IMG/VR virus record: IMGVR_UViG_3300020060_000009
Length of the DNA stretch: 64,000 nt
Reading direction: 5' to 3' (one strand)
Source of the DNA: a virus
Taxonomy: Duplodnaviria > Heunggongvirae > Uroviricota > Caudoviricetes
The notes beneath the pieces are model-generated. The model was given only the letters and a program-made list of their open reading frames with translations, was not told the DNA's origin and made no database searches. The translations under genes were made by a program, and so were the position numbers. Below, piece by piece: positions 3,902 through 49,259 of the stretch (positions are counted from its first letter, which is position 1; each line of letters opens with the position of its first letter).

Positions 3902-4111
3902 ATATTATCAATTATAAACTAATCGCCTTCTAGGATAATGTTATTTGGTTTCATAGTTCTTCTTCCAGTGCTATACATATCAACGCACGACGCGCTAGGA
4001 TGCCTCTATATATAAGAGTGCCTTCAACATCTCCGATGGTTTCCGCACTCGCTATTCGTGACTCCCAAAAAGCAACTTCTTCTTCTGTATGTGGCTTTGG
4101 GGCATCTTCGT

Positions 4112-4363
4112 TCATAAGTTCACCTTGTACTCGACTACTTTTATTGTTTCTGGGTCAGGTTTTGGATGAAATTGCATCGCGGAAGACAATGCCTTCTTGG
4201 GAGATAGATATGCCTGCACCCCACGCTTCACATATTTAGGCTTACCGTTGTGGCCAAGCGGATGCCAAAACTCCCCTGTAGATTTATCAATTAGAACGTA
4301 TATTGGCTTCACGCTGTCCCTGCTCCCCTTCTCCGACGTATGGCTTACGTCGCTTGCCGTCAT
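4112..4363 (-). CDS. hypothetical protein (internal start of ORF 4112..4492)
   Basis: C-terminal 84 aa from an internal Met looks protein-like (lysine-rich). The N-terminal part of the long ORF overlaps 4287..4577. Confidence 0.25.
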   Translation of the reverse strand: MTASDVSHTSEKGSRDSVKPIYVLIDKSTGEFWHPLGHNGKPKYVKRGVQAYLSPKKALSSAMQFHPKPDPETIKVVEYKVNL

Positions 4364-13265: not shown

Positions 13266-13419
13266 CCTTGATTTTTTCTCTAGACTCGATTATTAAATCA
13301 ATAATCTTATTATTTTCGTCAACAGAAACTTGAGCTATTTCGTTACGTTGAAACAGAGAACGACTTTCCCCATCTACCATGTAAAAAGCATCTGTAGTCA
13401 TGTAACTACGCAAGGTCAT
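13177..13419 (-). CDS. hypothetical small protein
   Basis: 80-aa ORF. Confidence 0.3.
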   Translation of the reverse strand: MTLRSYMTTDAFYMVDGESRSLFQRNEIAQVSVDENNKIIDLIIESREKIKGDAEEGARRYNEYQEQKLIKEQDENISSR

Positions 13420-20424: not shown

Positions 20425-20456
20425 GCTTGTGTTTACGTTGGAAAAGGCGCATAATT
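20425..20456 (+). promoter_or_regulatory. conserved phage promoter (TTGTGT-N17-CATAAT)
   Basis: gcTTGTGTttacgttggaaaaggcgCATAATtc, upstream of the replication operon. Confidence 0.6.
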
Positions 20457-27933: not shown

Positions 27934-28006
27934 TGGCTCCCTCGCTAGGACTCGCACCCAGATAACAGCCTTCAAAGGGCTGCGTCCTACTTTAGACGAC
28001 GTGGGA
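27934..28006 (-). tRNA. tRNA-Gln (anticodon UUG)
   Basis: Anticodon stem CAGCC/GGCTG with loop CTTTGAA. T-arm CTGGG-TGCGAGT-CCTAG. CCA encoded. Confidence 0.6.
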
Positions 28007-28011
28007 ATATT

Positions 28012-28098
28012 TGGCGGTGACAGTAGGATTCGAACCTACGGGGCTTTTGGCCCACAGCTTTAGCAAAGCTGCTCGATAAACCACTCTGACATATCACC
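28012..28098 (-). tRNA. tRNA-Ser (anticodon GCU), type II
   Basis: T-loop GGTTCGAATCC, long variable arm, anticodon loop TTGCTAA. CCA encoded. Confidence 0.65.
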
Positions 28099-28103
28099 GT
28101 ATT

Positions 28104-28180
28104 TGGCTGGAAAGGTAGGGGTCGAACCTACGAATTTTCTGGTTCAGAGCCAGGTGCCTTGCCTACTTGGCCACTTTCCA
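28104..28180 (-). tRNA. tRNA-Gln (anticodon CUG)
   Basis: Anticodon loop CTCTGAA flanked by CTGG/CCAG. T-loop GGTTCGACCCC. CCA encoded. Confidence 0.6.
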
Positions 28181-28621
28181 TTATTTAAATAAGTTATTAG
28201 CGACTACTACAATAATTGATATTATCGCAACTGCTGCTGCAATCGCACCGTATATTCTACCTACTGTTAGCTGGGAGCCTTTAGCCTTACCATCAGATAT
28301 ATTAATTCTGTCTGTAAGATCGCTTAACTTGCCTTCTAATGCTTTATGCTGAACAGTATATTCCTGCCTTGGCATTAAAGTACTAGATTGGTCTGCTAGT
28401 TGAGCTCTGAACTCATTAACGCTCTCAAATCGTTTCTCAGTAGAAACTTCTGCTTTATTAATAGCTTCTTTTGTTGCAGCTAAAGCAGCAGCTACTGCTT
28501 TCTCTTGCGATACAAGCGCAGCATCTATAGCTTTTTGATTATCTTCAAACCGTTGAGCGACATACTCTTTTAGAGTATCTACTGTCCAACCACTTTCATT
28601 TTTTTGTGTTTCACCTGACAT
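28181..28621 (-). CDS. coiled-coil protein with C-terminal membrane anchor
   Basis: 146 aa with a long Ala/Glu/Lys-rich helical region, then GAIAAAVAIISIIVVV TM. Embedded in the tRNA array. Confidence 0.45.
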   Translation of the reverse strand: MSGETQKNESGWTVDTLKEYVAQRFEDNQKAIDAALVSQEKAVAAALAATKEAINKAEVSTEKRFESVNEFRAQLADQSSTLMPRQEYTVQHKALEGKLSDLTDRINISDGKAKGSQLTVGRIYGAIAAAVAIISIIVVVANNLFK

Positions 28622-28651
28622 ATATACTCTAAGTATATAGGAAAGCTAATT

Positions 28652-28730
28652 TGGGGTGTAGAACGAGAATCGGACTCGCATCTCCTCCTTCACAGGGAGG
28701 CGCTTGCAACCAGTAAGCTACCTACAACAT
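28652..28730 (-). tRNA. tRNA-His (anticodon GUG)
   Basis: Anticodon stem CCTCC/GGAGG with loop CTGTGAA. Extra 5' G(-1) opposite C73, typical of tRNA-His. T-loop TCCGATT. Confidence 0.55.
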
Positions 28731-28733
28731 ATA

Positions 28734-28826
<93 letters not shown>

Positions 28827-28845
28827 TTTGGTGTGCCAGGTGGGA

Positions 28846-29241
28846 CTAATAACCAGTTTTTAAGTAAATTTCTCTACGTTTTTCTGGTGTATAAGCCTTT
28901 CTTCGACACGCTGATTTTGCGTCTCGGCAAGGCTGGCAATGACAACCTCTGTTGTACATTCCAATCTGACCATGATCTGCTAATATTTTCCTTGATGCTG
29001 CGACATTACAAGGCAGGTGGCTATAACCTATATTCTCCAAGTCAAAAAATAATTTGATTGGGTCTTCGCTATCTAACCAAGGTTCCATATGCTCTATAGA
29101 AAATGTTTCTCTATCTAGTGGCTTTTTACACCTGTAGCATACATGACCAGCTTTAACGGCAAAGTCGAATAATAAGTCTTTTAACAGCCGACCATTAGCT
29201 GTGCTAGGATTCATTCCTAGCTGTTCTTTCTTTTTGTCCAT
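28846..29241 (-). CDS. HNH homing endonuclease
   Basis: CYRCKKP...HMEP...N...H motif with flanking Cys pairs (CHCQPC). Lies between tRNA genes. Confidence 0.65.
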   Translation of the reverse strand: MDKKKEQLGMNPSTANGRLLKDLLFDFAVKAGHVCYRCKKPLDRETFSIEHMEPWLDSEDPIKLFFDLENIGYSHLPCNVAASRKILADHGQIGMYNRGCHCQPCRDAKSACRRKAYTPEKRREIYLKTGY

Positions 29242-29319
29242 AACAATCCTCGGATGTTTATTTTGGTTATTAATTTAATTATAACCTTTTCCGATTCTTG
29301 TCAAGGAAATGGTGGCCTC

Positions 29320-29396
29320 AGATGGACTCGAACCATCAGTCCCGAAGGATGGGAGGTTTAAGCTCCCTGCGTGAACCGTTTCGCCATGAAGCCATA
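29320..29396 (-). tRNA. tRNA-Leu (anticodon UAA), type II
   Basis: Anticodon stem GGGAG/CTCCC with plus-strand loop gtttaag. Long variable arm. CCA encoded. Confidence 0.6.
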
Positions 29397-29483
29397 TGGT
29401 GGGTCGTGAGAGACTCGAACTCTCAAGCCCTTGCGGGCAATAGGTTCTAAACCTATCGTGTATACCATTCCACCAACAACCCG
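29397..29483 (-). tRNA. tRNA-Leu (anticodon UAG), type II
   Basis: Acceptor GGGTTGT/ACGACCC. Anticodon stem ATAGG/CCTAT with loop TTTAGAA. Variable arm GCCCGCAAGGGC. T-loop TTCGAGT. Confidence 0.6.
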
Positions 29484-29572
29484 TGTGGTGCGCTTAGCTG
29501 GACTCGAACCAGCATGAGCTCTCGCTCGGACGCTTTTGAAGCGCCTGGGTCTACCTCTTCCCCCATAAACAC
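29484..29572 (-). tRNA. tRNA-Leu (anticodon CAA), type II
   Basis: Anticodon stem GGCGC/GCGTC with loop TTCAAAA. Variable arm GAGCGAGAGCTC. D-loop AGGTAGAC. Confidence 0.55.
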
Positions 29573-29624
29573 ATGTTTGTTAAAGACTCTTGACCATTTT
29601 ACCTGGCATATTTTCTCTTTCTTT

Positions 29625-29698
29625 TGGAGCGCCATACTGGAATCTAACCAGTTTAAACCGCTTTGCAGGCGGACGCGTGGACATTCCGCCAATGACGC
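29625..29698 (-). tRNA. tRNA-Cys (anticodon GCA)
   Basis: Acceptor GCGTCAT/ATGGCGC. Anticodon loop CTGCAAA. T-loop TTAGATT. Confidence 0.6.
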
Positions 29699-29782
29699 AT
29701 ATTTTATCTTGATTCCTCCGCTTATCCTTTAGGGATAGCTTGCTGATGTTTCATTGGGCGCAAGACGCGCGGAAGTTATTTT

Positions 29783-29860
29783 GGTGGCATCGGAAGGTTT
29801 CGCGCCCTCGACCCCCTGTGCTTCAAACAGGTGCTCTAACTATCTGAGCTACAATGCCAT
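29783..29860 (-). tRNA. tRNA-Phe (anticodon GAA) with atypical T-loop
   Basis: Acceptor GGCATTG/CGATGCC. Anticodon stem CCTGT/ACAGG with loop TTGAAGC. T-loop reads CGCGAAA instead of the canonical TTCGAAT. Confidence 0.5.
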
Positions 29861-29865
29861 AATTT

Positions 29866-29942
29866 GGTCGGGATAGTAGGAGTCGAACCTACCGCTTGAG
29901 ACGTCCAAGGTCCCCGTCACGCCTCGCAACTTCACCCCGATA
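29866..29942 (-). tRNA. tRNA-Pro (anticodon UGG)
   Basis: Anticodon stem GGGAC/GTCTC with loop CTTGGAC. T-arm GTAGGTTCGACTCCTAC. Confidence 0.55.
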
Positions 29943-29944
29943 TT

Positions 29945-30030
29945 TATTTGAACTTAGTCGAGATCGTCGGACTTGGACCGACATCGCCAGTCCCCGTGAC
30001 TGGTGTTCTTCTTAAACTATCTCTCGTTAT
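29945..30030 (-). tRNA. tRNA-like element, probable pseudo-tRNA
   Basis: T-arm-like GTCGG-TCCAAGT-CCGAC and a 5-bp anticodon-like stem CCAGT/ACTGG with loop CACGGGG (no U33). No encoded CCA, and two acceptor mismatches. Confidence 0.3.
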
Positions 30031-30031
30031 T

Positions 30032-30108
30032 TGGCTCCCAGTGTTGGAATCGAACCAACCGCCTTGACGTTAACAGCGTCCTGCACTACCGATGTGCTGA
30101 CTGGGAAT
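30032..30108 (-). tRNA. tRNA-Asn (anticodon GUU)
   Basis: Plus-strand T-arm gttggaatcgaaccaac and anticodon stem gacg/cgtc with loop ttaacag. Confidence 0.6.
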
Positions 30109-30204
30109 ATTTAGACACCCCGTGGAACTTGACATCCACATCTTCATCTATGTTACTTTGCTAGCGTTCACATAGGGTTGTTTTCTTTAAACTATGGGGC
30201 ATAT

Positions 30205-30282
30205 TTGGCGGACTGTACGAGACTCGGACTCGTTTCATCTCCGTGACAGGGAGACGTGTTACCCATATACTAACAATCCATA
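30205..30282 (-). tRNA. tRNA-Asp (anticodon GUC)
   Basis: Acceptor GGATTGT/ACAGTCC. Anticodon stem TCTCC/GGAGA with loop CTGTCAC. Confidence 0.6.
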
Positions 30283-30285
30283 TTT

Positions 30286-30362
30286 GGCAGGGAATGTAAG
30301 AATCTAACTCACGCCAAGAGGTTTGGAAGCTCTTGTGCTAACATTACACCAATCCCCTATAT
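30286..30362 (-). tRNA. tRNA-Trp (anticodon CCA)
   Basis: Anticodon loop TTCCAAA. T-loop GTTAGATTC. Acceptor AGGGGAT/ATTCCCT. A C-C mismatch closes the anticodon stem. Confidence 0.5.
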
Positions 30363-30363
30363 T

Positions 30364-30466
30364 TGGTGGAGGACTTTTCGTGGTATCCCCCGTTGAATGT
30401 GACATTTACAGTACACAAGGAACTGTAAACCGTTACTGTCTAGAACAGCACCAAAGTCCGAAGACT
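30364..30466 (-). ncRNA. tRNA-like structured RNA with 3' CCACCA
   Basis: 5' GGACTTT pairs with 3' AAAGTCC-T-CCACCA. Internal 8-bp hairpin TTTACAGT...ACTGTAAA with a 9-nt loop. About 100 nt, no canonical T-arm. Confidence 0.3.
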
Positions 30467-30829
30467 TTATATACATAACCTCGCAGACGGCTAGCTAATC
30501 CAACGTCTGTGACACATTGCAGCCATAGCCTGCTGTGCCTACATGTACATGACCACTCGCTACCCATCCCAGTTTCAGCACGATCAGGGTTTCACTCCCG
30601 CAACCGTCGTACATACTGGGCCAAAGCCTTGTCCGTCGTGTACTTGTATATCTATTATATCTAATTGTTAAATAAAAAGCGACCCTACATTTTTGTGGGT
30701 CGCTCGGAGATATTTTTGTTTTTCTATACTACAGTGAAAAACCTACAGCCCGAGCGCCACTAAAACTATCTGAATTATTCCAGAGTTGCGGTAGTTGATG
30801 CTGACACGATAAGTTCTTCATACTTTTAA

Positions 30830-30872
30830 TTATACACCATTATGAAAATAAACACAAGCGTTTTATTTAGTT
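30830..30872 (-). promoter_or_regulatory. conserved phage promoter on the minus strand driving tRNA array 1
   Basis: Reverse complement reads cgcTTGTGTttattttcataatggtgTATAATtaaaag (TTGTGT-N17-TATAAT), oriented towards the tRNA genes at 30466 down to 27934. Confidence 0.55.
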
Positions 30873-31070
30873 TTGTGCTTTTTCAGCTTCATCTGCTCCT
30901 GCTGATGTCTCTTCATTCGCGTAAACAGAACATAATAACGTGTAAAATAGAAGTATTTTTTCATCTGTTAAAAAGTAAAGTGCAATAGCAACAGGATAAT
31001 TCGCTCGCCAGAACCATTTTTTATAGAAGTGTTCTCTCTTCTGATATTTCTTATAAAATTTTCTAAACAT
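30867..31070 (-). CDS. small membrane protein (questionable)
   Basis: 67-aa ORF with one hydrophobic segment; its 3' end overlaps the promoter element. Confidence 0.25.
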   Translation of the reverse strand: MFRKFYKKYQKREHFYKKWFWRANYPVAIALYFLTDEKILLFYTLLCSVYANEETSAGADEAEKAQN

Positions 31071-31163
31071 GTTTATAGTATACTTGGTCGAGCCAGCGGG
31101 GGATGATCCCGTATCTCCATCTTGAGAGGATGGTGTCCTAACCGATTAGACGAAAGCTCGATA

Positions 31164-31250
31164 TGGTACTGAGGGAGGGATTCGAACCCCCGAAGTCCGA
31201 AGACATCTGGTTTACAGCCAGCTTACTTTAACCACTTGCATACCTCAGCA
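31164..31250 (-). tRNA. tRNA-Tyr (anticodon GUA), type II
   Basis: T-arm GGGGGTTCGAATCCCTCCC, long variable arm. Plus-strand anticodon stem ctgg/ccag with loop tttacag. Confidence 0.6.
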
Positions 31251-31253
31251 TAT

Positions 31254-31327
31254 TTGGTGAACCACGCGAGACTCGAACTCGCTTCTACTCCTTGAAGGGG
31301 AATCGACTTAACCCATGGTCGAGTGGT
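31254..31327 (-). tRNA. tRNA-Glu (anticodon UUC), position 33 = C
   Basis: Acceptor GGACCAC/GTGGTTC. Anticodon stem ATTCC/GGAGT with loop CCTTCAA. T-arm GCGAGTTCGAGTCTCGC. Confidence 0.5.
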
Positions 31328-31486
31328 CCAGATATTAAAAAAATCGCCTATGGGCGACTACAATTTTATGACAAAAGAAGAAGCCCTGTTATAGGTTAGA
31401 TTCTTCCTCGTAATATGTATTACTGTTTATCATATTATCTATTATAGCGTATTCAATTAAATAACACAATAGCTAAAATAAAGCTT

Positions 31487-31518
31487 GTGTTTTTAACCAC
31501 ATAGGCGCATAATTATAA
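31487..31518 (+). promoter_or_regulatory. conserved phage promoter (TTGTGT-N17-CATAAT)
   Basis: aagcTTGTGTttttaaccacataggcgCATAATtat, upstream of 31543. Confidence 0.6.
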
Positions 31519-31542: not shown

Positions 31543-32694
31543 ATGGCAAAAGAAAAAGCGTTAAATATGATCAGTTATCATAGTAAACTAGTGGGTGTAA
31601 CATTTGAGGGTCGTCAGGACGTCATTAAGCAATTAAAAGGTAATGAAGAACTGCGTTTCAGGCGCGAACCAGAGAACGCATACGATGCGAACGCGGTTGC
31701 TGTAGATGTATTAGTTTATACAGGTGATATCCCTAATCAAAGTTCGCTCGAAGAATGGATACCAATTGGCTATATTGCTCGTGATAAAAACTCTGATCTT
31801 GCAAAACTTCTTACAGATGGTAAACACGCAACTATAAAAATGAGTGAAATTACTGGCGGTGGCGAAGCAAGCAGCTACGGCGTTAACGTTTATATCGAAT
31901 ACGAACGAGAACGCAAATTAGAGCGTTCAGAATATGCAGTATTAGTTAAAGATTTTTTTGGCAATGAAATATTCTACGACCCTATCCTACATGAATACAC
32001 AAATCCTCTAGGAGAAGTTTATCTGTCTGGTAGTGCTTTTGCTGCCGAGCCTGAGTTTGATTCAGAGTTCTGGGCTAATGACGCAATCGAACGTTACGGT
32101 CTACCACCAGAACACAAGCAACGCATTCTTGATATGTGGAAGACAAATGGTGAGGCTTCTCGAAGCTACGGAACAGCAATCCACGCTGCAATCGAACTCT
32201 ATGGTCAATATCACGATATTGCAGATATCATAGATATGGATAAGAAAACTGGTAAACGTAAAAAGGTAGACGCTAAAACAGAAAAACATTCAGCACTCTC
32301 AAAGCTTCCTTACTTAAAAGAAGTAACATTAAATTTCTTCACAGAAGAACGTCTTAAAGAAGTTGCTTTCTATGAAGTCCTCATTGTAGATCACAAGAAC
32401 AAACGTGCTGGCCGTATTGACCGTTTGGTGATTCTTGAAGATGGACGATTTGAAATTCGTGATATGAAAACAAACTTCAAACTTGCACCAAAAGACTTAC
32501 GTGGTTATGCAAAACAGTTAAGCTTCTATGCAGATCTTGTAGTAGCTAATGGTGGTATATTGGGCGATAACCCAACTATGATTCACCATCTAAAGGATAC
32601 GCAATGGGAAGATATCAAACTAGAAAAGATTGATACTCTCGAAAAGTTTGAAGCGCCAGAATTAAATAATAATAAAAGCCTGAGTAAACAGTAA
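31543..32694 (+). CDS. HIRAN-domain protein with C-terminal PD-(D/E)xK-like nuclease region
   Basis: N-terminus VGVTFEGRQDVIKQLKGNEELRFRREPENAYDANAVAV is the HIRAN signature. C-terminal RIDRLVILEDGRFEIRDMK resembles a D...E.K restriction-like core. Confidence 0.55.
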   Translation: MAKEKALNMISYHSKLVGVTFEGRQDVIKQLKGNEELRFRREPENAYDANAVAVDVLVYTGDIPNQSSLEEWIPIGYIARDKNSDLAKLLTDGKHATIKMSEITGGGEASSYGVNVYIEYERERKLERSEYAVLVKDFFGNEIFYDPILHEYTNPLGEVYLSGSAFAAEPEFDSEFWANDAIERYGLPPEHKQRILDMWKTNGEASRSYGTAIHAAIELYGQYHDIADIIDMDKKTGKRKKVDAKTEKHSALSKLPYLKEVTLNFFTEERLKEVAFYEVLIVDHKNKRAGRIDRLVILEDGRFEIRDMKTNFKLAPKDLRGYAKQLSFYADLVVANGGILGDNPTMIHHLKDTQWEDIKLEKIDTLEKFEAPELNNNKSLSKQ

Positions 32695-33008
32695 TGAGTT
32701 TAAGTAACCCAAACAGCACATTTGAGGTTATGCTTCCGGCAAAGTATGATGAACTGACTTCTTTGCAGCGTAGAGCTGTAAGGGAGCAGTACTCTCGTCT
32801 GCAACATTGGAACTGTTTCTTTTGTAAGGCTTCGTTATTCGGTAAGCCTATTCAGAAAGTTATGGATGCAGAAATAAATTGGGCATTATTCCCAGAAAAC
32901 TTTACAAAATATCCAGTTCATTTACAACATGATCACGATACAGGATTGACCGAAGGTGCTGTTCATGCACTATGTAACGCTTATATGTGGCAATACCACA
33001 GGAGGTAA
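32694..33008 (+). CDS. endonuclease VII-like (HNH/His-Cys box) protein
   Basis: CFFCKASL...LQHDHDTGLTEGAVHALCNAY matches the T4 endo VII family core C..C...HxDHDHxTGxxRGLLCxxCN. Confidence 0.65.
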   Translation: MSLSNPNSTFEVMLPAKYDELTSLQRRAVREQYSRLQHWNCFFCKASLFGKPIQKVMDAEINWALFPENFTKYPVHLQHDHDTGLTEGAVHALCNAYMWQYHRR

Positions 33009-33014
33009 AAACAG

Positions 33015-33545
33015 ATGCAGACGATAACCGTCTGTACAGATGCAGGACATAAGAACGCTTGGAAGGACTCAGTATCAATTTGGGCGACGTACATACGAAC
33101 ACCGTCTGAAACTATACATGCTTCCGGAATAATCAAACAAAAAACCAAAGGAAGTTCTCATGCAGAACTATATGCTGTTGCTAATGCGCTTTATATCCTT
33201 AGTAAAAAATATGATTTGAGCAAATACAAATTAATCTTATATTCTGACAATCTGTACGCACTTCAAAACCACAGAGAAGGTACTCTAAAGAAGCGAAAAG
33301 CAGACAACATGAAGGTCTATAATAAATGGATTAAACCACATGTTGATAACGCTTGTGAATTTGAAACTCGACATGTTAAAGGTCACTTACCGAGATCACA
33401 ATGGGGAGCTAACCCAACAAGATTCTATATGCAGTGGTGGTGTGACAATGAAGTACACCGAATAATGAAAATAGGAGTGCAAATAGTATATGAAAAATGG
33501 AAACAAAAAAGGCTTGTGTTATTAGCGAAAAAAGAGCATAATTAA
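33015..33545 (+). CDS. rnh: RNase H
   Basis: ITVCTDAG, SSHAELYAVANALYIL and LILYSDNLYA give the D-E-D catalytic pattern in RNase HI order. The C-terminal residues are encoded by the downstream promoter sequence. Confidence 0.65.
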   Translation: MQTITVCTDAGHKNAWKDSVSIWATYIRTPSETIHASGIIKQKTKGSSHAELYAVANALYILSKKYDLSKYKLILYSDNLYALQNHREGTLKKRKADNMKVYNKWIKPHVDNACEFETRHVKGHLPRSQWGANPTRFYMQWWCDNEVHRIMKIGVQIVYEKWKQKRLVLLAKKEHN

Positions 33546-33546
33546 A
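33514..33546 (+). promoter_or_regulatory. conserved phage promoter (TTGTGT-N17-CATAAT)
   Basis: ggcTTGTGTtattagcgaaaaaagagCATAATtaaa, overlapping the 3' end of rnh. Confidence 0.55.
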
Positions 33547-33578
33547 GCATAAGAGAAAAGGCCTAAAAAGGGGATAAA

Positions 33579-34613
33579 ATGTCAAAAGTAGAAAACATTA
33601 TTAACCACATTGTATTAGTGCTTGATGCGTCAGATTCAATGACACATCTTGCAAAGGATGTAATCAAAGTAGCAGATAACCAGATTGAGTATTTGGCTCG
33701 TCGCTCTAAAGAACTCGACCAAGAAACTCGCGTTACTGTCTATTCGTTTAATACTACTTATACTCAACCTAGCAGTTATCGCTACAGCCACACTCCACAA
33801 ATTGAATGCCTTGTCTATGACAAAGACGTTCTTCGTGTGCCAAGTATTGCTGAAGTGTACAAGACTGATGGTGCTACTCCACTTATTGACGCTACTATAC
33901 TAGCTCTTGATGATTTAGCTCTTACCCCAGAGAAATATGGCGAACACTCATTCCTCGTCTACGTTCTTACCGATGGCGAGGAGAATGTCTCTAGCGCTAC
34001 TCCAGCATCTTTGAGCGCTCGTATAAATAACTTACCTGATAACTGGACACTGGCTACATTCGTACCTAACCAGGTCGGTGTTATGGAAGCAAAGCGTTTC
34101 GGGTTCCCTAAAGACAATATCGCCGTTTGGGATGCTACTAGCACCGCTGGTGTTCAAGAGATGGGTAAGCAAATCCGTGAAACTACAGAACGCTTTATGC
34201 AAGCTCGTTCTACTGGTAGCCGTGGAATCCGTAATCTATTTGCACTTGAAGACGTTAAGAGTGCTGACCTTTCTAAACTTACTGCTCTCCACTTTGGTCA
34301 GTTCCGCTTATTCGATGTTACTGAAAAGCAGCGTATTGATGAATTTGTAGAAGGTACTACAGGACGTGCCTATAAATTGGGCGAAGCTTATTACCAACTC
34401 TCTAAACCAGAGATTATCCAACCGCAAAAACAAGTTGCAATTCTTAATAAGAAAGGTCTGTTCATCGGTGACGAGGCTCGTACTATCCTTGGTCTTGGTG
34501 ATGAACATGTAAAGGTTGGCCCAAACCACAACCCTGACTACACAATCTTTATTCAAAGTACAAGTAATAACCGTAACCTAATGCCAAACACTAAACTGTT
34601 GATCTTGAGTTAA
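33579..34613 (+). CDS. von Willebrand factor A (vWA) domain protein
   Basis: MIDAS motif LVLDASDSM, plus a downstream Thr and an Asp (LTDGEEN) at canonical spacing. Confidence 0.65.
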   Translation: MSKVENIINHIVLVLDASDSMTHLAKDVIKVADNQIEYLARRSKELDQETRVTVYSFNTTYTQPSSYRYSHTPQIECLVYDKDVLRVPSIAEVYKTDGATPLIDATILALDDLALTPEKYGEHSFLVYVLTDGEENVSSATPASLSARINNLPDNWTLATFVPNQVGVMEAKRFGFPKDNIAVWDATSTAGVQEMGKQIRETTERFMQARSTGSRGIRNLFALEDVKSADLSKLTALHFGQFRLFDVTEKQRIDEFVEGTTGRAYKLGEAYYQLSKPEIIQPQKQVAILNKKGLFIGDEARTILGLGDEHVKVGPNHNPDYTIFIQSTSNNRNLMPNTKLLILS

Positions 34614-35150: not shown

Positions 35151-35491
35151 TGAGCGAAATGAGACATTACAAAGGAAAACTAGTTAAATTACCAAGAAGA
35201 TTTGATCAAACGCTTGAAGAACAAGCTAAAGAGCTCGTCAATGAGAAGGTACTAGAGCAGTGGAATAAAACTTATTTAGATCAGCTCCTTGACGAAGGTG
35301 ACTACAAAGAATACATGGTTATTAATGGCGACCTTTACAAGACCAAAAACCTTACAGAGAAAAATGCAGATAATGGTCTTTTTAATGCTCGAAGAATCAA
35401 CGGAAATGATTATGAATTTGAAGTTCGTTTTTACGACGGGGGATGCAGCTTAAGCGAAGCAATAAACACTGCGTTAGGGGTGACAAAATGA
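35150..35491 (+). CDS. hypothetical protein
   Basis: 113-aa ORF. Confidence 0.45.
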   Translation: MSEMRHYKGKLVKLPRRFDQTLEEQAKELVNEKVLEQWNKTYLDQLLDEGDYKEYMVINGDLYKTKNLTEKNADNGLFNARRINGNDYEFEVRFYDGGCSLSEAINTALGVTK

Positions 35492-35805
35492 GTGTAACAA
35501 TTAACGGTGAAACTTACGAAGGCAACAATATAAAAGTTGTTAATGATAAAGTTTGGATTGATGGCAAGCGTGTAGATAATGCAGAACCTAATAATAAGGG
35601 CATTCTTCAAGTCAAAGTTACTGGTACGCTCCATAATCTTGAGGCAGATGGTTCTGTCACTTGCGACAATGTTACTGGCACTGTTAAAGCAGGTGGCTCA
35701 GTAGCTTGTGACGATGTAGGTGGAAATGTACAATCTGGTGGAAGTGTTAGCTGCGACAACGTTGGGGGTTCAGTTATGGCAGGTGGTTCTGTAAGTCACG
35801 GCTGA
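35487..35805 (+). CDS. beta-helix repeat protein (bactofilin-like repeats)
   Basis: Tandem degenerate repeats GSVTCDNVTG-TVKAGGSVACDDVGG-NVQSGGSVSCDNVGG-SVMAGGSVS. Start taken at the ATG at 35487 with a GGGGTGA ribosome-binding site. Confidence 0.4.
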
Positions 35806-36197: not shown

Positions 36198-36881
36198 ATG
36201 AGCTTATCAAACCAAACATCAACAGTCAGCCCTGCAAAACATTTTTTGCGAGTTAAGAGCGGAACCGTAAACTATTACGACAAGGAAGCACAGAAGAACA
36301 TCGACGTTCCACTACCTTTGTCATTCGTAGTTCTCGATCAGCTTGCAACAGTTAAGGGTTGGTCTGACAGTGACCAAAGTGGTTATTGGAGTAACGAGGT
36401 AAAATCAGCAGGACAAGATGTTCTAACCGTTCGTACATCGAAGGGCCAAAAAGCATCAGGTATCTGGAAGGAAATTAAAAGCGACCCAGCAGTGTCAGGT
36501 GCGAAGTTCAACGCTTCTGTCTACATTGCAGCACCAGGTCGTGAAGGTCTAGAAATTCAGAACATCGCATTTAGCGGTGCAAGTCTAAACGCTTGGATTG
36601 AATTTGTTAATGCAAATAAGGGCGTAACTCGCGGTAAGAACAAGGTGGTTATCACTGGGTTCAGCGATGAGAAAAAGGGTGCTGTGAAGTATCAAGTGCC
36701 TGTGTTTGCGGCTGAGGAGATCACTGAGTCTGAGCTAGGGGAAGCTATGGAACTGGATAAGGAGTTACAGACTTACTTGGACAGTTACTTTGCAAACCGT
36801 CGTTCAGAAGAGTTAGTAGCAGTTGCTACCGACGACGAAGAAGAGGGAAAGCCAGTTGACCTAAGCGAGATACCTTTTTAA
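36198..36881 (+). CDS. single-stranded DNA-binding protein, T7 gp2.5-like (putative)
   Basis: 227 aa with an acidic C-terminal tail TDDEEEGKPVDLSEIPF ending in Phe, as in gp2.5-family SSBs. The OB-fold region is not independently verified. Confidence 0.4.
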   Translation: MSLSNQTSTVSPAKHFLRVKSGTVNYYDKEAQKNIDVPLPLSFVVLDQLATVKGWSDSDQSGYWSNEVKSAGQDVLTVRTSKGQKASGIWKEIKSDPAVSGAKFNASVYIAAPGREGLEIQNIAFSGASLNAWIEFVNANKGVTRGKNKVVITGFSDEKKGAVKYQVPVFAAEEITESELGEAMELDKELQTYLDSYFANRRSEELVAVATDDEEEGKPVDLSEIPF

Positions 36882-36890
36882 GGAATCGCT

Positions 36891-37040
36891 ATGGGACAGG
36901 TTCTAATTATAGCCCTGTTGGTCGCAGTTATAGCTTTGGGAGGTCTCGCCATCTCCCAAAGCAAGACCATTGAAAAATACGAAAATGAGCTTATTAAAAA
37001 AGCCGGAAAGAACAAGAATGGGCCAAAGCAGTCAAAGTAA
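36891..37040 (+). CDS. small membrane protein (49 aa)
   Basis: MGQVLIIALLVAVIALGGLAIS...; overlaps the start region of the next gene. Confidence 0.3.
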   Translation: MGQVLIIALLVAVIALGGLAISQSKTIEKYENELIKKAGKNKNGPKQSK

Positions 37041-37830
37041 TTTAGTTCGGAAAATCGTAAAATGGAGCGCTATTGGTGTATTAGCACTATTGCTAATCAT
37101 CACATTTACAAGCGCCACTCGTAATATTGATACTGGTAAGATCGGTGTTGTTACACAATATGGTCGCGTTACTGGTCGTGAACTTGACGAAGGTTTTAAC
37201 TGGGTTCTGCCTTGGGGTGTGAACAATGTTACAGTCTACGATGTTAAGACGCAAAAAGTAGAAGCCCAAGCAGGTGCAGCTACCAAGGACTTGCAGGATG
37301 TGAACGCGACAATTGTCCTGACATATAGTCTTAATCAGGGTAAAGTAAAAGAAGTTCACCAAGCTGTTGGTAAAAACTTCCAAGCTATTGAAATTGACCC
37401 ACAGGTACAAGAAGCATTTAAGGCTGTTTCAGCAAACTACACCGCTAGTGAATTGATTACTAGTCGTGCAGAAGTAAAAGCAGCAGTTGTAAAGAACCTA
37501 AAAGAACGTGTAGAAAAGAATGGCCGTTATAATATCCAAGATGTAGCCATCACAGACTTTAAGTTTAGCGCAGCATTTAATGCAGCTATCGAAGCAGTGC
37601 AGATTGCAAACCAGCAAGTTGCACAGAAGCGTCAAGAACTCGAATCGGTAAGAGTTGAAGCAGAAAAAACAATTGCACAAGCTAATGCAGCAGCCGAAGC
37701 TCAACGTGCGCAGCAAGCTTCCTTGACACCAGAACTCTTGCAAAAACAAGCTATAGAAAAATGGGACGGTAAACTACCAGTTTACTCGACGGGTGGAAAC
37801 ACATTCTTCAACATCCCTACAGGAAAATAA
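37017..37830 (+). CDS. SPFH/band-7 (prohibitin/HflKC-like) domain membrane protein
   Basis: N-terminal TM, then GKIGVVTQYGRVTGRELDEGFNWVLPWG...VYDVKTQK, the characteristic PHB-domain start. Long Ala/Gln-rich coiled-coil C-terminus. Confidence 0.65.
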
Positions 37831-38873: not shown

Positions 38874-38951
38874 TGGTGGGTCTTCTGGGGATCGAACCCA
38901 GGACATTCTGCTTAAGAGGCAGATGCTCTAACCTGCTGAGCTAAAGACCCA
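38874..38951 (-). tRNA. tRNA-Lys (anticodon CUU)
   Basis: T-arm ctggggatcgaacccag. Plus-strand anticodon stem ctgc/gcag with loop ttaagag. Confidence 0.6.
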
Positions 38952-39237
38952 TATGTTTGCAAACACCTACTGTCCTAGTCGTTATTCCGCAGTTTACACA
39001 ATAAATGCGAATGAGTTTAAAAACTCGAGCTGGCATAAAAACTGCTATCATTTCATTGCAACAAAAGCAACGTGGACGGCCGTATTCGTTAAGGTATTTA
39101 TCTATGAACTCGTGATTTAGTAATCCAGCTCTTAAATGCTGTCGCACTGGTAAATCATTTGTTCTCTTTTTTATATCCATGTATTTATTATATATGGTGG
39201 AGTCGCAGGTAGTCGAAACCTGATATCTATCGTGCAA
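38941..39237 (-). CDS. hypothetical Cys-rich protein
   Basis: 98 aa; CFCC...CVNCG. Its 3' end abuts or overlaps tRNA-Lys. Confidence 0.3.
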   Translation of the reverse strand: MHDRYQVSTTCDSTIYNKYMDIKKRTNDLPVRQHLRAGLLNHEFIDKYLNEYGRPRCFCCNEMIAVFMPARVFKLIRIYCVNCGITTRTVGVCKHMGL

Positions 39238-39270
39238 GGATAGTGTAATAGCCGTTATACGACGACCCCA
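39195..39270 (-). tRNA. tRNA-Ala (anticodon UGC)
   Basis: Acceptor GGGGTCG/CGACTCC. Anticodon stem CTATC/GATAG with loop CTTGCAC. T-loop TTTCGACT. Confidence 0.55.
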
Positions 39271-39352
39271 TAAATGAAATGTACTAAGGGAAGTTTTCGT
39301 ATAACTTACAACGAGGCAATTCCTGCTGAGTTTGACCCCTTAATCATACTTA

Positions 39353-39430
39353 ATTGTCGCATAGCAGGATTTGAACCTGCGCCATGAACCCCTAAAATGG
39401 GGCTGCTCTACCGCTGAGCTATATGCGACA
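39353..39430 (-). tRNA. tRNA-Lys-like (anticodon UUU), no encoded CCA
   Basis: 8-bp acceptor GTCGCATA/TATGCGAC. T-arm GCAGGTTCAAATCCTGC. Anticodon region CCCC-ATTTTA-GGGG with an imperfect stem. The 3' end is followed by AATT, not CCA. Confidence 0.45.
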
Positions 39431-39434
39431 TATT

Positions 39435-39512
39435 TGGTGACTCACGAAGGATTCAAACCTTCAACCTTCACGTTCGTAGCGTGATGCTCTATTCGATTAA
39501 GCTAGCGAGCCA
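39435..39512 (-). tRNA. tRNA-Arg (anticodon ACG)
   Basis: T-arm gaaggattcaaaccttc. Plus-strand anticodon stem cacg/cgtg with loop ttcgtag. Confidence 0.6.
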
Positions 39513-39742
39513 TATAGTGCCAAGTTACTGATTACAGACAGAACTTGGGCTGTAAGAAACTGGAGCTAGACGGTGCTACCCCGTCAATGGCATTACTAGT
39601 AAGTCCATTTACATTCCATTTGCCCATATTTGGTGGACTGAGTTTATAGTCATCTGCCCGTAACGACTAAACAGTTTAACGACATATTCAGGTCAATTAT
39701 TTCTTGGTTGCGGAGCTGGGTAATGCTCCCAGTGTCTCCTCC

Positions 39743-40105
39743 TTATGAGAGAGGCGAGATAACTTTTTCTCCACTCCGCAGTATTTGTGCTTTGCCAAAG
39801 GTTTTTATATCTACGGTTAGCGTCTTAATAACATGGCAATTTGCACAGAGCATTTGTAGATTATCCTTTGTTATTTTACCTCTATACAGTTTTCGCCAAG
39901 TCTGATCACCACCAAAATCTTCTTTATTTTTTCTAAGTAGGGGCTTTATATGATCTATTTGAAATGCCAATATATTTTCACAGTAACCACATTTAGCGCA
40001 TCTGTTATTAAACATCTCTGATACTTTTTCTCGTATCATCAATTGTTCTTTTTGTTTCCAAAGACGTTCATATTCACGCTGTTTGTTTTTATCTTTATAT
40101 GGCAT
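39743..40105 (-). CDS. HNH endonuclease
   Basis: CAKCGYC...IDHIKP...N...LCANCH, the HNH core with zinc-coordinating Cys pairs. Inside the tRNA array. Confidence 0.7.
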   Translation of the reverse strand: MPYKDKNKQREYERLWKQKEQLMIREKVSEMFNNRCAKCGYCENILAFQIDHIKPLLRKNKEDFGGDQTWRKLYRGKITKDNLQMLCANCHVIKTLTVDIKTFGKAQILRSGEKVISPLS

Positions 40106-40150
40106 AATCTTATTTAATTATAACCTTTTTGTGTTTTGTCAATGTACGTT

Positions 40151-40226
40151 TGGTGGTTCATCAAGGAATCGGACCTTGTGCACTCGGTATGTAACACCGA
40201 TGCTCTACCAATGAGCTAATGAACCA
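40151..40226 (-). tRNA. tRNA-Val (anticodon UAC)
   Basis: T-arm caaggaatcggaccttg. Plus-strand anticodon stem tcggt/accga with loop atgtaac. Confidence 0.6.
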
Positions 40227-40320
40227 TATGGACTTTTTGATTAACTTCTGTGTCCAAAGAAGCCGAGGCGATTTTACTCTTTATTTTCTGTTCGCGCGAA
40301 CATATACCTCTGGGAGCATT

Positions 40321-40396
40321 TGGTCGTGCCAGAAGGGGTTGAACCTTCTTCGTCAAGATATAAGCTTGATGCTCTAACCGTTGAGCTATGGCACAG
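40321..40396 (-). tRNA. tRNA-Ile (anticodon UAU)
   Basis: T-arm agaaggggttgaaccttct. Plus-strand anticodon stem tcaag/cttga with loop atataag (codon AUA). Confidence 0.55.
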
Positions 40397-40401
40397 TATT
40401 T

Positions 40402-40472
40402 TGGTAGCCACGCTGGGAATTGAACCCAGTATTAAGGTTTAGAACGCCTGTTACTTATCCTAAGACGTAGCC
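40402..40472 (-). tRNA. short tRNA-like gene with defective anticodon arm
   Basis: 71 nt. Acceptor GGCTACG/CGTGGCT and T-arm CTGGGTTCAATTCCCAG are good, but the anticodon region has only a 3-bp AGG/CCT stem around CGTTCTAAA. Possible anticodons UCU or CUA cannot be decided. Confidence 0.35.
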
Positions 40473-40608
40473 GTATTTGATTCACCACTAGCAGAGTCGA
40501 TACAAACGCACAAAAGGTACAATTTTCCAATGCTCTCGTCGCTGCATACAGGTTACTCCTTATCCTGCGTGGGTCGCCGTTTTTTCGTGTGAATCTTGGT
40601 CGTGGTGC

Positions 40609-40684
40609 AGGGATTCGAACCCTGACGATCTGATTGGAAGTCAGACATGCTAATCCGTTAAACATCACATCACGATAATTTCAC
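40609..40684 (-). tRNA. tRNA-Gly (anticodon UCC)
   Basis: T-arm cagggattcgaaccctg. Plus-strand anticodon stem ctga/tcag with loop ttggaag. Confidence 0.6.
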
Positions 40685-40761
40685 GAGCTAGTCCATGTCA
40701 TGCTGGATACTATCAATGCCACTTCATGCAAAGTTGGGCGCTCTCATTACTAAATTGTTAA

Positions 40762-40857
40762 ATTGGAGTCTTTAACGGAATTGAACCGTTCTACTCGGAG
40801 CCTACCTAGGATGGCCAGCCGAGTGTGCTACCGTTACACTAATGCGACATATATGGA
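40762..40857 (-). tRNA. aberrant ~96-nt tRNA-like element
   Basis: Good 5' half (GTCGCAT-TA-GTGT-AACGGTA-GCAC) and T-arm AACGGTTCAATTCCGTT plus CCA, but the 3' acceptor AAAGACT does not pair with the 5' end. The anticodon region CTCGG...CCGAG encloses about 20 nt. Confidence 0.3.
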
Positions 40858-40930
40858 GCCGACTTTCGGACTTGAACCGAACACCTGGTACTTACAAGAT
40901 ACCTGCTCTACCTGATGAGCTAAATCGGCA
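40854..40930 (-). tRNA. tRNA-Thr (anticodon UGU)
   Basis: Acceptor GCCGATT/AGTCGGC. Anticodon stem GGTAT/GTACC with loop CTTGTAA. T-arm TTCGGTTCAAGTCCGAA. Confidence 0.55.
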
Positions 40931-40931
40931 C

Positions 40932-41008
40932 ATGGTTGGCAATCTAAGACTTGAACTTAGGACACCTACTGTATCGGAGTAGCGCTCTACCACTGAGCTA
41001 ATTGCCAT
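40932..41008 (-). tRNA. tRNA-Ile (anticodon GAU), position 33 = C
   Basis: Perfect anticodon stem CTACT/AGTAG with tRNA-sense loop CCGATAC. T-arm ctaagacttgaacttag. Confidence 0.5.
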
Positions 41009-44753: not shown

Positions 44754-45542
44754 TTATTTAGTTTTTTCGTTTTCTTCCTGCTGTGTGCGAGTGAAGTACG
44801 AGTCGGTCGTCATAGTAGGCGATGCACTGTACGAACGAGTAGCACTTGAGAGGCTCACGACCATAGCCTTGATACCTGCTCCTGTAGTGTTGAAGTTACT
44901 CGTGTTTGAGGTTGAGAACCCATAGGCTGATGAAGTAGCGAACGCGTCTTGGTTTGCACCAAGGTACACGAATGTCCAGTTACCTTCATTTTCTTTTTGC
45001 TTTTTAAGTTCTTTCATATCTTTAGCGGTGAACTCTTTAGACATATTCTCACCACCATCTGTCAATACGACAAAGAGGTGTTTCTCGTCTTTACGAGACT
45101 TCACATCCTTCAACACGGTGCAGAACGCATCATGAAGCGGTGTGCCGCCGTCTGGAACGTAAGTCTCTCTAGTGAGTTCTGGCACATCATCAACATACAT
45201 TGAATCATGTATCTTGTTGAGACGGAGACTGCCATTTCTGTCGCTGTCAAAAGCTGTAAGGCTGAATTTATATTTGCCACCATCTTTCTTGAGAGAGTTT
45301 ACATACTCGTTGTATCCTTCGATAGTTGCATTGCGCGCGGACTCCATAGACCCCGAGCTGTCTAGCAATACGTGAACAACTGTCGTCAGCTTAGAGGCAT
45401 CTTCGCGTTTACCTTTATTGAAGATAATATCGCGCGCTTCATCTGCCGTAAGTACGTTTAGTTTTACCAACTCTGCAATCTCTGCACCCGTTGGTTGGTT
45501 TTTTAGTTTCCAAGTTAAATCTTTTGTCATCTTATTATTCAT
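44754..45542 (-). CDS. von Willebrand factor A (vWA) domain protein
   Basis: MIDAS VHVLLDSSGSM, VVLTDGGEN and a Thr at canonical spacing. Confidence 0.65.
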   Translation of the reverse strand: MNNKMTKDLTWKLKNQPTGAEIAELVKLNVLTADEARDIIFNKGKREDASKLTTVVHVLLDSSGSMESARNATIEGYNEYVNSLKKDGGKYKFSLTAFDSDRNGSLRLNKIHDSMYVDDVPELTRETYVPDGGTPLHDAFCTVLKDVKSRKDEKHLFVVLTDGGENMSKEFTAKDMKELKKQKENEGNWTFVYLGANQDAFATSSAYGFSTSNTSNFNTTGAGIKAMVVSLSSATRSYSASPTMTTDSYFTRTQQEENEKTK

Positions 45543-47627: not shown

Positions 47628-49259
47628 TTATTTTTTATTTGTTAATTTAGCAATGATATCGTTGATGAACTTACCAATAGCTACGAATATTGCCCATAGA
47701 GGACTTTTAGTTGGGTCATCTGGTTCAACTGGGTCTGTAGGAGTTGTTGACTCATCTTTATAACCACCACCTTCTACTTTATAGTATTCCTCAAGTGTTA
47801 GAACACCTGTGTTGCGCATATCTGTCGCAACAATTATCCCTACGTAACGCCAGTGCCAAGGTTCGCTCATGTAGCCTGTGATAGGCTCTTTTGGAGCTGT
47901 GTAACGAAGAATCCAACCATACTTGTAAGCATTGGCGGTTAACCAAGTAGAAGCAGCAGAAGTCGAGAAAGAATCCTCGATAGGCGAGAAGTCCATAGTT
48001 AACCCAGTTTGATGTTCGCTGAATCCTGGACGAGCAGAATAGCGATCAGCAGCCTCTTTCCCATCTTGCTTAACATAATTATTGTAAAGCGTTTCTTGCG
48101 TCTCGTAAGAACGATAACCAGAAGCAGGAGTTAAGGTTTGTTGTGTCTGCATCAACTTAAGACTATCAGCAGCTTCTTTGCGAAGTCTTTGTCCAGAGCC
48201 AACATCAACAAGATCAGCAGGGACATAACTTTTATCAAGCCCGTGCTTTTTATTAACAACCTTAGTCACCTCTTTATCTATTGTAGGGACTGGGTAAACG
48301 GGAGGCGTGACTACCGGAACCGTATCTACTGTCACTTCTTGAAGATCATGAGTGGTTTGGTCCGTGAAACCACCGGAGTGTGCCCAACCACCTGTGTATT
48401 TGCCACGGAACCAAACATCACTACCGTCAACAAGCGTACCGTGTGTCCAGGCATCAAAGTCTAGAACGTCGGCAGGGTTAAATGTCTTAATAACATTATC
48501 CGGTGCTGGGACAGGAGTTTTGCGATAGTTAATAACAGAGTTAGCAACTTCACGTTGATACCCAAGTAGAACTGGCTTAGTAGCTGGAGTTAGATCAGGA
48601 AGATCATGTGTTCCCTTATCGTCGAATGCACCGCTCCAAACATAGCCACCTGTATAACGCCCGACAAACCAAATATCATTACCGTCTACGCTTTCACCAT
48701 GTACAAATCCCTTGAAATCGTAAGCTAAGCCACCTACAAATGTTTGTAGTAGGTTACCTGACGAACTAGCTGCATCACGGTATTTGGCAGCATAACTCGC
48801 TACACGCTGGAAACCTTCGAGTGGAGCATCATCCCCAATAGTGAAGGGAGCGTTACCGTTAGGACGTAACCAACCTTGAACATAACTTGCATAAGCATTG
48901 AATACCCCTGTATAAACAGGAACTTGCATAAATGAATCTTGTTGATAAATTGTTATGTTTGGACCATTAATAGCCACAACTACACCAGTGTGCCCGAAAC
49001 CACCACCCATTTGTCCATTAGAAACAAATATATCTCCTAGGCGTGGAGCATTTCCTGCTGGAATTTTATCAAGATAAGTAGAAGACCAGAAGCGATATAT
49101 ATCTACAGCATTTCCCCAACCCGCGCTTTGAGTCCAAGAAACATCAGTAAGATATTCTACCCAACTTTTTGATACGTCAACACAATCATAACTTTGGTTA
49201 TCTAGGTCTATTTTTTTATTGTATACTTGGTTCATCCAAGCTTGTAGTGATTTTGCCAT
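47628..49259 (-). CDS. endolysin: N-terminal CHAP peptidase + C-terminal M15/VanY-like D-Ala-D-Ala carboxypeptidase domain
   Basis: N-terminus with a conserved Cys (YDCVDVSKSW) and His (GFGHTGVV) as in CHAP. Central repeated ~90-aa modules (HDLPDLT... / HDLQEVT...) look like cell-wall-binding repeats. C-terminus SGYRSYETQETLYNNY...PGFSEHQTGLTMDF...EPWHWRYVG is the VanY/M15B zinc peptidase motif set. Confidence 0.7.
   Translation of the reverse strand: MAKSLQAWMNQVYNKKIDLDNQSYDCVDVSKSWVEYLTDVSWTQSAGWGNAVDIYRFWSSTYLDKIPAGNAPRLGDIFVSNGQMGGGFGHTGVVVAINGPNITIYQQDSFMQVPVYTGVFNAYASYVQGWLRPNGNAPFTIGDDAPLEGFQRVASYAAKYRDAASSSGNLLQTFVGGLAYDFKGFVHGESVDGNDIWFVGRYTGGYVWSGAFDDKGTHDLPDLTPATKPVLLGYQREVANSVINYRKTPVPAPDNVIKTFNPADVLDFDAWTHGTLVDGSDVWFRGKYTGGWAHSGGFTDQTTHDLQEVTVDTVPVVTPPVYPVPTIDKEVTKVVNKKHGLDKSYVPADLVDVGSGQRLRKEAADSLKLMQTQQTLTPASGYRSYETQETLYNNYVKQDGKEAADRYSARPGFSEHQTGLTMDFSPIEDSFSTSAASTWLTANAYKYGWILRYTAPKEPITGYMSEPWHWRYVGIIVATDMRNTGVLTLEEYYKVEGGGYKDESTTPTDPVEPDDPTKSPLWAIFVAIGKFINDIIAKLTNKK

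Follow-up and report, generated by a model that had tools for sequence, protein, structure and literature searches.

A HIRAN domain fused to a RecB/Cas4-family nuclease in the replication block of an uncultured phage

What would a phage do with a HIRAN domain fused to a nuclease? Almost all work on HIRAN has concerned fork-remodelling translocases of eukaryotes, and what the domain does in bacteria and phages is essentially unexplored. The question is raised by open reading frame (ORF) 1, a plus-strand gene for a 383-residue protein (31543..32694) in a 64,000-nucleotide stretch of IMG/VR virus record IMGVR_UViG_3300020060_000009. This stretch, hereafter the window, makes up about two thirds of the 99,020-bp contig of an uncultured phage (ENA ERZ27268014 k141_673418). 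A first-pass annotation of the letters alone placed ORF1 at the head of a series of four genes, the others encoding an endonuclease VII-like protein (ORF2), an RNase H (ORF3) and a vWA protein (ORF4), and all four ORFs lie on the plus strand at exactly the coordinates it gave. Our analysis confirms that the joining of HIRAN to a RecB/Cas4-family nuclease is a real and recurrent architecture among uncultured phages, built of well-known domains and itself uncharacterised; no description of such a fusion was found in the literature searched.

The two halves of ORF1 were established by Pfam profiles and by a predicted structure with fold search. A sequence search of ORF1 against PDB sequences gave nothing significant; it was structure prediction and fold search that resolved the protein. 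The proposal that HIRAN is joined here to a restriction-fold nuclease with no helicase stood up well, since both profiles score above their curated thresholds and both halves have the expected folds. For HIRAN (PF08797) the match is 44.1 bits against a cut-off of 24.7 (E=1.9e-11), and for the RecB/Cas4-family PD-(D/E)XK profile (PF12705) it is 36.1 bits against a cut-off of 22.

The HIRAN domain, at about residues 9-121 (31567..31905, +), shows the HIRAN fold, with the conserved pocket segment retained. In the profile of this part, the family sequence REPENxYDxNAVAV aligns with HLTF QRDPNNPYDKNAIKV, which sets N45, Y47 and D48 of ORF1 against the NPYD segment of HLTF; there N91, Y93 and D94 form the 3'-OH pocket of the HLTF-DNA structures. 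Neither N45 nor D48 varies among 42 fusion homologues, nearly all of which have an aromatic residue at position 47 (Y, F, H or W). Together with F21, these residues would form a predicted 3'-OH DNA-end-binding pocket and, by analogy with HLTF, the pocket would capture a free 3'-OH end of single-stranded DNA (ssDNA).

The C-terminal domain, at about residues 133-366 (31939..32640, +), is a cysteine-free RecB/Cas4-family PD-(D/E)XK nuclease, which also matches phrog_298, "exonuclease", at E=4.6e-18. It carries G210-T-A-x-H214...E218, D293, D307-x-K309 and Q325xxxY329, and across 59 homologues H214, E218, D293 (within GRIDRL), D307-x-K309 (within RDMKTN) and Q325-LSF-Y329 are invariant or nearly so. 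This set is the RecB-family signature and not literally the "D...E.K" motif that had been read into the protein. Nor is ORF1 a Cas4 in the strict sense: with no cysteine at all it lacks the four-cysteine Fe-S cluster of true Cas4, Dna2, EXO5 and AddB, and should not be named Cas4.

How far does this architecture extend? A word-indexed search found about 42 clusters (90% identity) that carry both Pfam domains at 62-78% identity to ORF1, and an exhaustive HMMER scan of 1.84 billion representatives added about a dozen more whose match to ORF1, at 28-52% identity, spans its whole length. Ten distant clusters were scanned, and most have both Pfam domains; hence, judged by sequence comparison, the fusion is old and stable, down to about 30% identity. 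Among 50,697 phage records the HIRAN part of ORF1 had no tblastn match, and cultured phages show the nuclease core only. The description of the architecture as uncommon in phages therefore holds for cultured phages, whereas among uncultured ones it is common. There was no host or prophage relative of ORF1 among 185,579 genomes.

A larger sister group, of about 300 residues, shares a nuclease core 65-70% identical to that of ORF1 and lacks HIRAN. Its members (P0043-P0120; loci L006, L007, L010, L012 and L021-L025) begin instead with a domain of about 65 residues, MxKVKYTLTAVVPVAQYANLQP..., to which no precomputed Pfam domain is assigned. This was considered as a degenerate HIRAN and rejected, the hhalign probability being 0.04%, so that we regard it as a genuine domain replacement. 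In a tree of nuclease cores (rough neighbour-joining, midpoint rooting) the HIRAN-less proteins form essentially one clade nested within HIRAN-bearing lineages, and HIRAN was probably replaced once. A search for homologues of HIRAN only returned mostly gene fragments and told little about architectures; the exhaustive search of representatives was more informative. It revealed a protein with DHHA1, RecJ_OB and HIRAN domains (P0384), in which the same type of HIRAN sits on a RecJ-like protein. RecJ is a 5'->3' ssDNA exonuclease, so that the pairing of a 3'-end binder with a 5'->3' nuclease has arisen at least twice. Other HIRAN layouts (P0339, P0298, P0394, P0259) comprise a cold-shock domain with two HIRAN copies, a four-fold tandem HIRAN, TPR repeats, and a 716-residue protein with a weak LAGLIDADG match.

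The surroundings of ORF1 are those of a replication block. Two minus-strand arrays holding 26 tRNA genes (27934-31329 and 38874-41007) flank a plus-strand block in which ORF1-ORF4 lie along with genes for an O-like initiator, a DnaB-like helicase and a RusA resolvase; a polymerase-associated exonuclease and an SPFH/band-7 gene (36970-37830) lie near ORF1 as well. No cultured relative of the phage turned up: in the same phage records, its capsid protein had no tblastn match and the locus no megablast match. Its relatives are contigs of 85-110 kb from groundwater, soil, freshwater and marine metagenomes, and IMG/VR yielded 5 related loci.

A 40-nucleotide element upstream of ORF1 is repeated upstream of ORF4 (repeat D5 of the repeat search). 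Its core, CTTGTG-N18-CATAAT, is found 10 times in the window, where chance would give 0.04, always on the plus strand and with identical spacing. Copies of the fuller form, GCTTGTGTT...AG(N)GCATAAT, are at 20426, 23683, 24892, 31484, 33513, 41399, 41710, 42376, 43527 and 46228; every one is shortly upstream of a plus-strand gene, over a span of 20.4-46.3 kb. The copy at 31484..31513 (+) lies 30 nucleotides upstream of the ORF1 start and that at 33513..33542 (+) lies inside the 3' end of ORF3, 36 nucleotides upstream of the ORF4 start, with no further copy between them. We infer that this motif is a phage promoter and that its copies delimit the transcription units in the replication and early block. 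(A generic scan for sigma-70 promoters and terminators performed at chance level, and the phage-specific motif was used instead.) The stop codon of ORF1 overlaps the start of ORF2 (TAATG) and GGAGG precedes ORF3; because of these tight junctions and the positions of the motif, ORF1, ORF2 and ORF3 are predicted to form one transcription unit and ORF4 to belong to another.

Synteny, assessed by comparing every window protein with 33 loci in tblastn, shows which parts of this arrangement are kept. The nuclease core, the SPFH gene, ORF10 and ORF12 recur in the long related loci, in all of which ORF10 adjoins the nuclease. Most of them also have the RNase H, with 65-70% identity where the relationship is close and 25-30% where it is distant. 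A copy of the motif stands before the nuclease gene in L005, L015, L016, L017, L019 and L026, and one stands behind the RNase H gene in L014, L017 and L029, with or without a vWA gene next. ORF1 lies in the phage replication block, in a conserved predicted transcription unit with the RNase H gene. ORF2 is present in some HIRAN-bearing loci only, and the vWA gene in four loci only.

The choice left by the first-pass annotation was between recombination-dependent replication and an anti-defence role, and the genomic context favours replication or recombination. We lean, with moderate confidence, towards ORF1 being a phage replication and recombination nuclease for which HIRAN is the targeting module, because of the domain identities, the conservation of the motifs in the 59 homologues, the stability of the architecture, the RecJ-HIRAN parallel, the separate HIRAN and Cas4 genes of phages such as DLP4, the replication context, the predicted ORF1-ORF2-ORF3 transcription unit and the synteny with RNase H and ORF10. 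The HIRAN pocket would capture a free 3'-OH terminus, which could be that of a primer or nascent strand or one exposed at a double-strand break or gap. With this end captured, the nuclease would come to lie on the adjacent 5'-ended strand and would thread it and then degrade or clip it, like its relatives AddA/AdnA, MGME1, Dna2, EXO5 and RecE. One possible outcome is 5'->3' resection, with the 3' strand left intact for annealing and recombination-dependent replication; another is that 5' flaps and primer remnants are removed jointly by ORF1 and the co-transcribed RNase H. The region carries ORF2 and the vWA protein as optional cassettes, not as obligate partners. It also counts in favour of this reading that in the roughly 81 kb inspected of the 99-kb genome we saw no FEN-type or Pol I-type 5' nuclease. 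An annealase (RecT, Red-beta, Erf or Sak) was likewise not recognised there or among the ORF1 neighbours, and ORF1 is thus not part of a recognisable exonuclease-annealase pair of the lambda Red or RecET type.

Several considerations weigh against this assignment. Polarity, substrate and 3'-OH dependence are drawn by analogy from distant relatives, at 11-20% identity. Equivalences outside the aligned REPENxYD segment, such as that of F21 with HLTF Y72, are presumed from inspection of the motif. A whole subclade has swapped HIRAN for an unrelated domain of about 65 residues, so that HIRAN is dispensable to the nuclease. The HIRAN-bearing locus L005 has a different gene at the RNase H position, the promoter is a sequence motif and not a mapped transcription start, and a FEN, a Pol I or an annealase could lie in the remaining 18 kb or so of the genome, outside the inspected part.

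A broader and more tentative idea, which we hold to be possible and somewhat doubtful, is that HIRAN-nuclease and RecJ-HIRAN fusions form a previously unrecognised class of "3'-end-anchored 5'-strand nucleases", in which HIRAN would hold and protect the 3' terminus and the nuclease would cut back the 5' strand or flap opposite it, up to a defined point. If so, ORF1 would be a single-polypeptide, helicase-independent resection or flap enzyme, a phage counterpart of the logic of FEN1, Dna2 and MGME1. Its partners would be the co-transcribed RNase H and possibly ORF10, whose tail, resembling that of the single-stranded-DNA-binding protein (SSB), could recruit host SSB-interacting proteins. The finding of the fusion overturns no established view, and the component domains are individually well known. 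ORF1 is small, free of cysteine and confidently predicted, and is thus a tractable target for biochemistry and a possible end-specific nuclease tool.

Two other roles for ORF1 deserve weighing against a replication nuclease. The first is the degradation of host DNA, which stays a live rival since the phage's own DNA is probably hypermodified. A Tet_JBP dioxygenase gene about 0.5-1.4 kb left of the window start (L038 11525-12388) and two glycosyltransferase genes in the window (13406-14440 and 16389-17939, both on the minus strand), one of them fused to a methyltransferase domain, suggest that the phage DNA is hypermodified at cytosine. T-even phages have modified DNA and degrade that of their host. 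ORF1, possibly with ORF2, would then attack host ends or forks through HIRAN, for shut-off and nucleotide scavenging, while hypermodification protects the phage, and the apparently early or middle phage promoter in front of ORF1 would suit such a task. However, no link was found between ORF1 and the discrimination of modified DNA, RecB/Cas4-family enzymes require DNA ends and do not make first cuts, and the conserved partners, RNase H and a possible SSB-like protein, have functions typical of replication. We consider host shut-off unlikely.

The second role, likewise a live rival, is anti-defence: ORF1 would destroy defence nucleic acids, such as retron DNA with free 3' ends or the guides and prespacers of Cas4-like pathways, or would compete with RecBCD at phage ends. 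Phage-encoded Cas4-family proteins have been tied to CRISPR spacer acquisition (Hooton and Connerton 2015, as cited in PMC6469090), and HIRAN occurs in candidate defence loci (PDC-M03B, E=1e-5) and in HipA-HIRAN operons (PMC11706625). The swappable N-terminal domain of the ORF1 family is, moreover, a trait frequent in conflict genes. Against this, NCBIfam gave no match and PADLOC only weak, single-domain ones, anti-defence markers were not found among the neighbours, and the nuclease gene belongs to the syntenic core, the variable genes being ORF2 and that for the vWA protein. An anti-defence role is accordingly distinctly improbable in our judgement, and we found no specific evidence in favour of either this role or host-DNA degradation.

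Last, a single physical machine of nuclease, HNH partner, RNase H and vWA scaffold is suggested by the shared strand, the very short intergenic distances and the co-occurrence of the ORF1 tail with ORF2 (a hint of contact between the two), and is largely refuted, to the point of being very improbable, by the promoter motif between ORF3 and ORF4, by the patchy synteny of ORF2 and the vWA gene, and by homologues of the vWA protein (in Myrna and in Streptomyces, Synechococcus and Caulobacter phages) and of ORF2 (in Schitoviridae) that lie in unrelated contexts or without such neighbours. By the same evidence, the earlier grouping of the four genes as one module has to be given up: the motif stands before ORF1 and again before ORF4, and relatives often lack ORF2 and the vWA gene.

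The neighbours differ in how well their first readings fared. ORF2 (32694..33008, +; 104 residues) had been called an endonuclease VII-type junction-resolving enzyme, which claims too much; we describe it as an accessory protein with a putative endonuclease VII-like Zn/HNH scaffold. Its best family match is phrog_14729, with no function assigned (E=1.6e-34), its matches to endonuclease VII are weak, and against PF02945 it scores 19.7 bits, below the curated cut-off of 23.6. No PDB match was obtained by profile, and sequence searches of ORF2 and of ORF10 against PDB sequences gave nothing significant. In an hhalign comparison with T4 gp49 (probability 58%), covering gp49 residues 10-64 only, the invariant C41, C44, H91 and C94 (CCHC), H79, H81 and N95 of ORF2 align with gp49 C23/C26/C58/C61, H41/H43 and N62, and its HLQH(D/N)H with HLDHDH of gp49. 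ORF2 thus appears, from these alignments, to keep the zinc/beta-beta-alpha-Me scaffold and the His/Asn core. The position aligned to the metal ligand D40 of gp49 is however an invariant glutamine (Gln78). Moreover, ORF2 has no counterpart of gp49 beyond residue 64 (104 residues against 157), a part that includes the dimerisation region. Because of these two differences a junction-resolving role for ORF2 is not established, and the phage already has RusA.

In phages of Pseudomonas, Rhizobium, Agrobacterium and Vibrio, ORF2 has homologues about 50% identical to it, recorded as "hypothetical proteins"; these phages include Schitoviridae (Littlefix, OLIVR1) and similar phages of 70-78 kb. In the Agrobacterium phage OLIVR1 (L035) the homologue, at 4001-4273, is on the strand opposite several tiny annotated ORFs, beside a band-7 gene, and is probably absent from the annotation of that record. 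A 104-residue downstream gene was considered as a universal partner of the nuclease and rejected, the 104-residue neighbour in L006 and L007 and gp124 of mycobacteriophage Omega being unrelated to ORF2. The low-confidence C-terminal tail of ORF1 (32641..32691, +), which ends in ...SLS(K/R)Q and has a predicted local distance difference test score (pLDDT) below 50 at residues 372-383, is mostly present where ORF2 follows, the two co-occurring in 5/6 loci. ORF2 and ORF10 (starts 32694 and 36198) share the N-terminus MSLSN, for which the DNA repeat search gives no explanation; the likeness of the SLS(K/R)Q tail to MSLSN may mark an interaction peptide or be a coincidence.

Downstream, the RNase H and a vWA protein with a metal-ion-dependent adhesion site (MIDAS) were read correctly. 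ORF3 (33015..33545, +), the last gene of the ORF1 unit, has an RNase H fold, matching phrog_531 at E=1e-12 and scoring 24.7 bits against PF00075, just under the cut-off of 25.8. Its 7 homologues, the most distant at 26% identity, retain D9, E51, D/E78 (D78 in ORF3), H124 and D144, which we take to be the DEDD(H) residues of E. coli RNase HI. ORF3 is thus a credible RNase H, seemingly catalytically intact. ORF4 (33579..34613, +; phrog_26613), which we regard as accessory, consists of a vWA domain with an intact MIDAS and a C-terminal region of about 145 residues without an assigned fold. It scores 19.8 bits against PF00092, below the cut-off of 23.8, and is 56% identical to mycobacteriophage Myrna gp18. 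The MIDAS residues (DxSxS...T...D: D16, S18, S20, T100, D132) are invariant, including in Myrna gp18 and in a paralog within the window. The latter is a second vWA protein (44754-45542, minus strand; 262 residues; phrog_7371, E=5e-44), related to the vWA half of ORF4 and sharing its MIDAS residues.

ORF10 (36198..36881, +; 227 residues; phrog_6706) has a beta-rich core, a long helix and an acidic tail, the tip of which, L(S/D)(E/D)IPF, is like that of bacterial SSB and lies at or a few residues from the C-terminus. Its AlphaFold2 model (pLDDT 82) had no PDB match below E=1e-3 by Foldseek, the best hint being the PhiC31 recombination directionality factor gp3 (template modelling score 0.36). 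The idea of a T7 gp2.5-like SSB was considered and found unsupported (hhalign probability 1.3%, and the same Foldseek result), which leaves the IPF tail as the only clue. ORF10 may be an ssDNA-binding or SSB-mimicking partner, perhaps of a new fold.

Other features of the window stand apart from ORF1. With the tRNA arrays goes a tRNA-repair kit of CCA-adding enzyme, polynucleotide kinase and RNA ligase (genes 1312-2319, 9346-10248 and 10255-11538, all on the minus strand), and one tRNA call, at 39355-39429, is odd in having a 2-base "tt" anticodon. A 543-residue protein (47628-49259, minus strand) with CHAP and VanY (D-Ala-D-Ala carboxypeptidase) domains is a likely lysin. ORF8 (35443-35805, +; 120 residues; phrog_3163) is about 80% identical in relatives and contains three 45-nucleotide tandem repeats, at 35655-35793, that encode GGSVxCD(N/D)VxG units.

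How, then, does ORF1 compare with systems already known? Its closest named relatives are the "RecB-like exonucleases" of cluster J mycobacteriophages and Gordonia phages, such as Omega gp123, the core of which is homologous to ORF1 (35% identity over residues 134-364, E=1e-30). Like ORF1, gp123 is phage-encoded and followed by a small overlapping gene; unlike ORF1, it has no HIRAN domain, and its downstream gp124 is not an ORF2. To our knowledge the function of these exonucleases has never been assayed. The structural relatives of the ORF1 nuclease, at 11-20% identity, are the nuclease domains of MGME1, EXO5, Dna2, AddA/AdnA, RecE and Cas4, the nearest of which depend on ssDNA ends and thread the 5' strand or flap; ORF1 differs in having neither a helicase partner domain nor the Fe-S cluster of some of them (Cas4, Dna2, EXO5), a cluster also present in AddB. 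FEN1 combines a 3'-terminus pocket with threading of the 5' flap to make precise nicks. Its fold is unrelated to that of ORF1, and the likeness is a functional analogy, offered as a hypothesis only. Eukaryotic HIRAN was reportedly described by Iyer, Babu and Aravind in 2006 in fusion with the restriction-fold VRR-Nuc nuclease, a precedent for HIRAN with this fold, although of a nuclease subfamily other than the RecB/Cas4 family of ORF1 and not in a phage. For the HIRAN half the closest systems are HLTF/Rad5 and bacterial lp_0118 (PDB 4s0n, 4xzg, 6l8o, 3k2y); in HLTF/Rad5 the domain is joined to a fork-remodelling SNF2 translocase and a RING ligase, whereas in ORF1 it is joined to a nuclease. 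Finally, in Stenotrophomonas phage DLP4 and PaMx28-like phages HIRAN and Cas4 each have a gene of their own within a single replication and repair module (PMC6469090). The HIRAN of this type has no BLAST-detectable similarity to that of ORF1, and what are two polypeptides there are one polypeptide here, so that the fusion links the two families. Taken together, the ORF1-type fusion, the RecJ fusion and the separate HIRAN and Cas4 genes lead to a testable hypothesis, namely that prokaryotic HIRAN delivers 5'-strand nucleases to DNA 3' termini.

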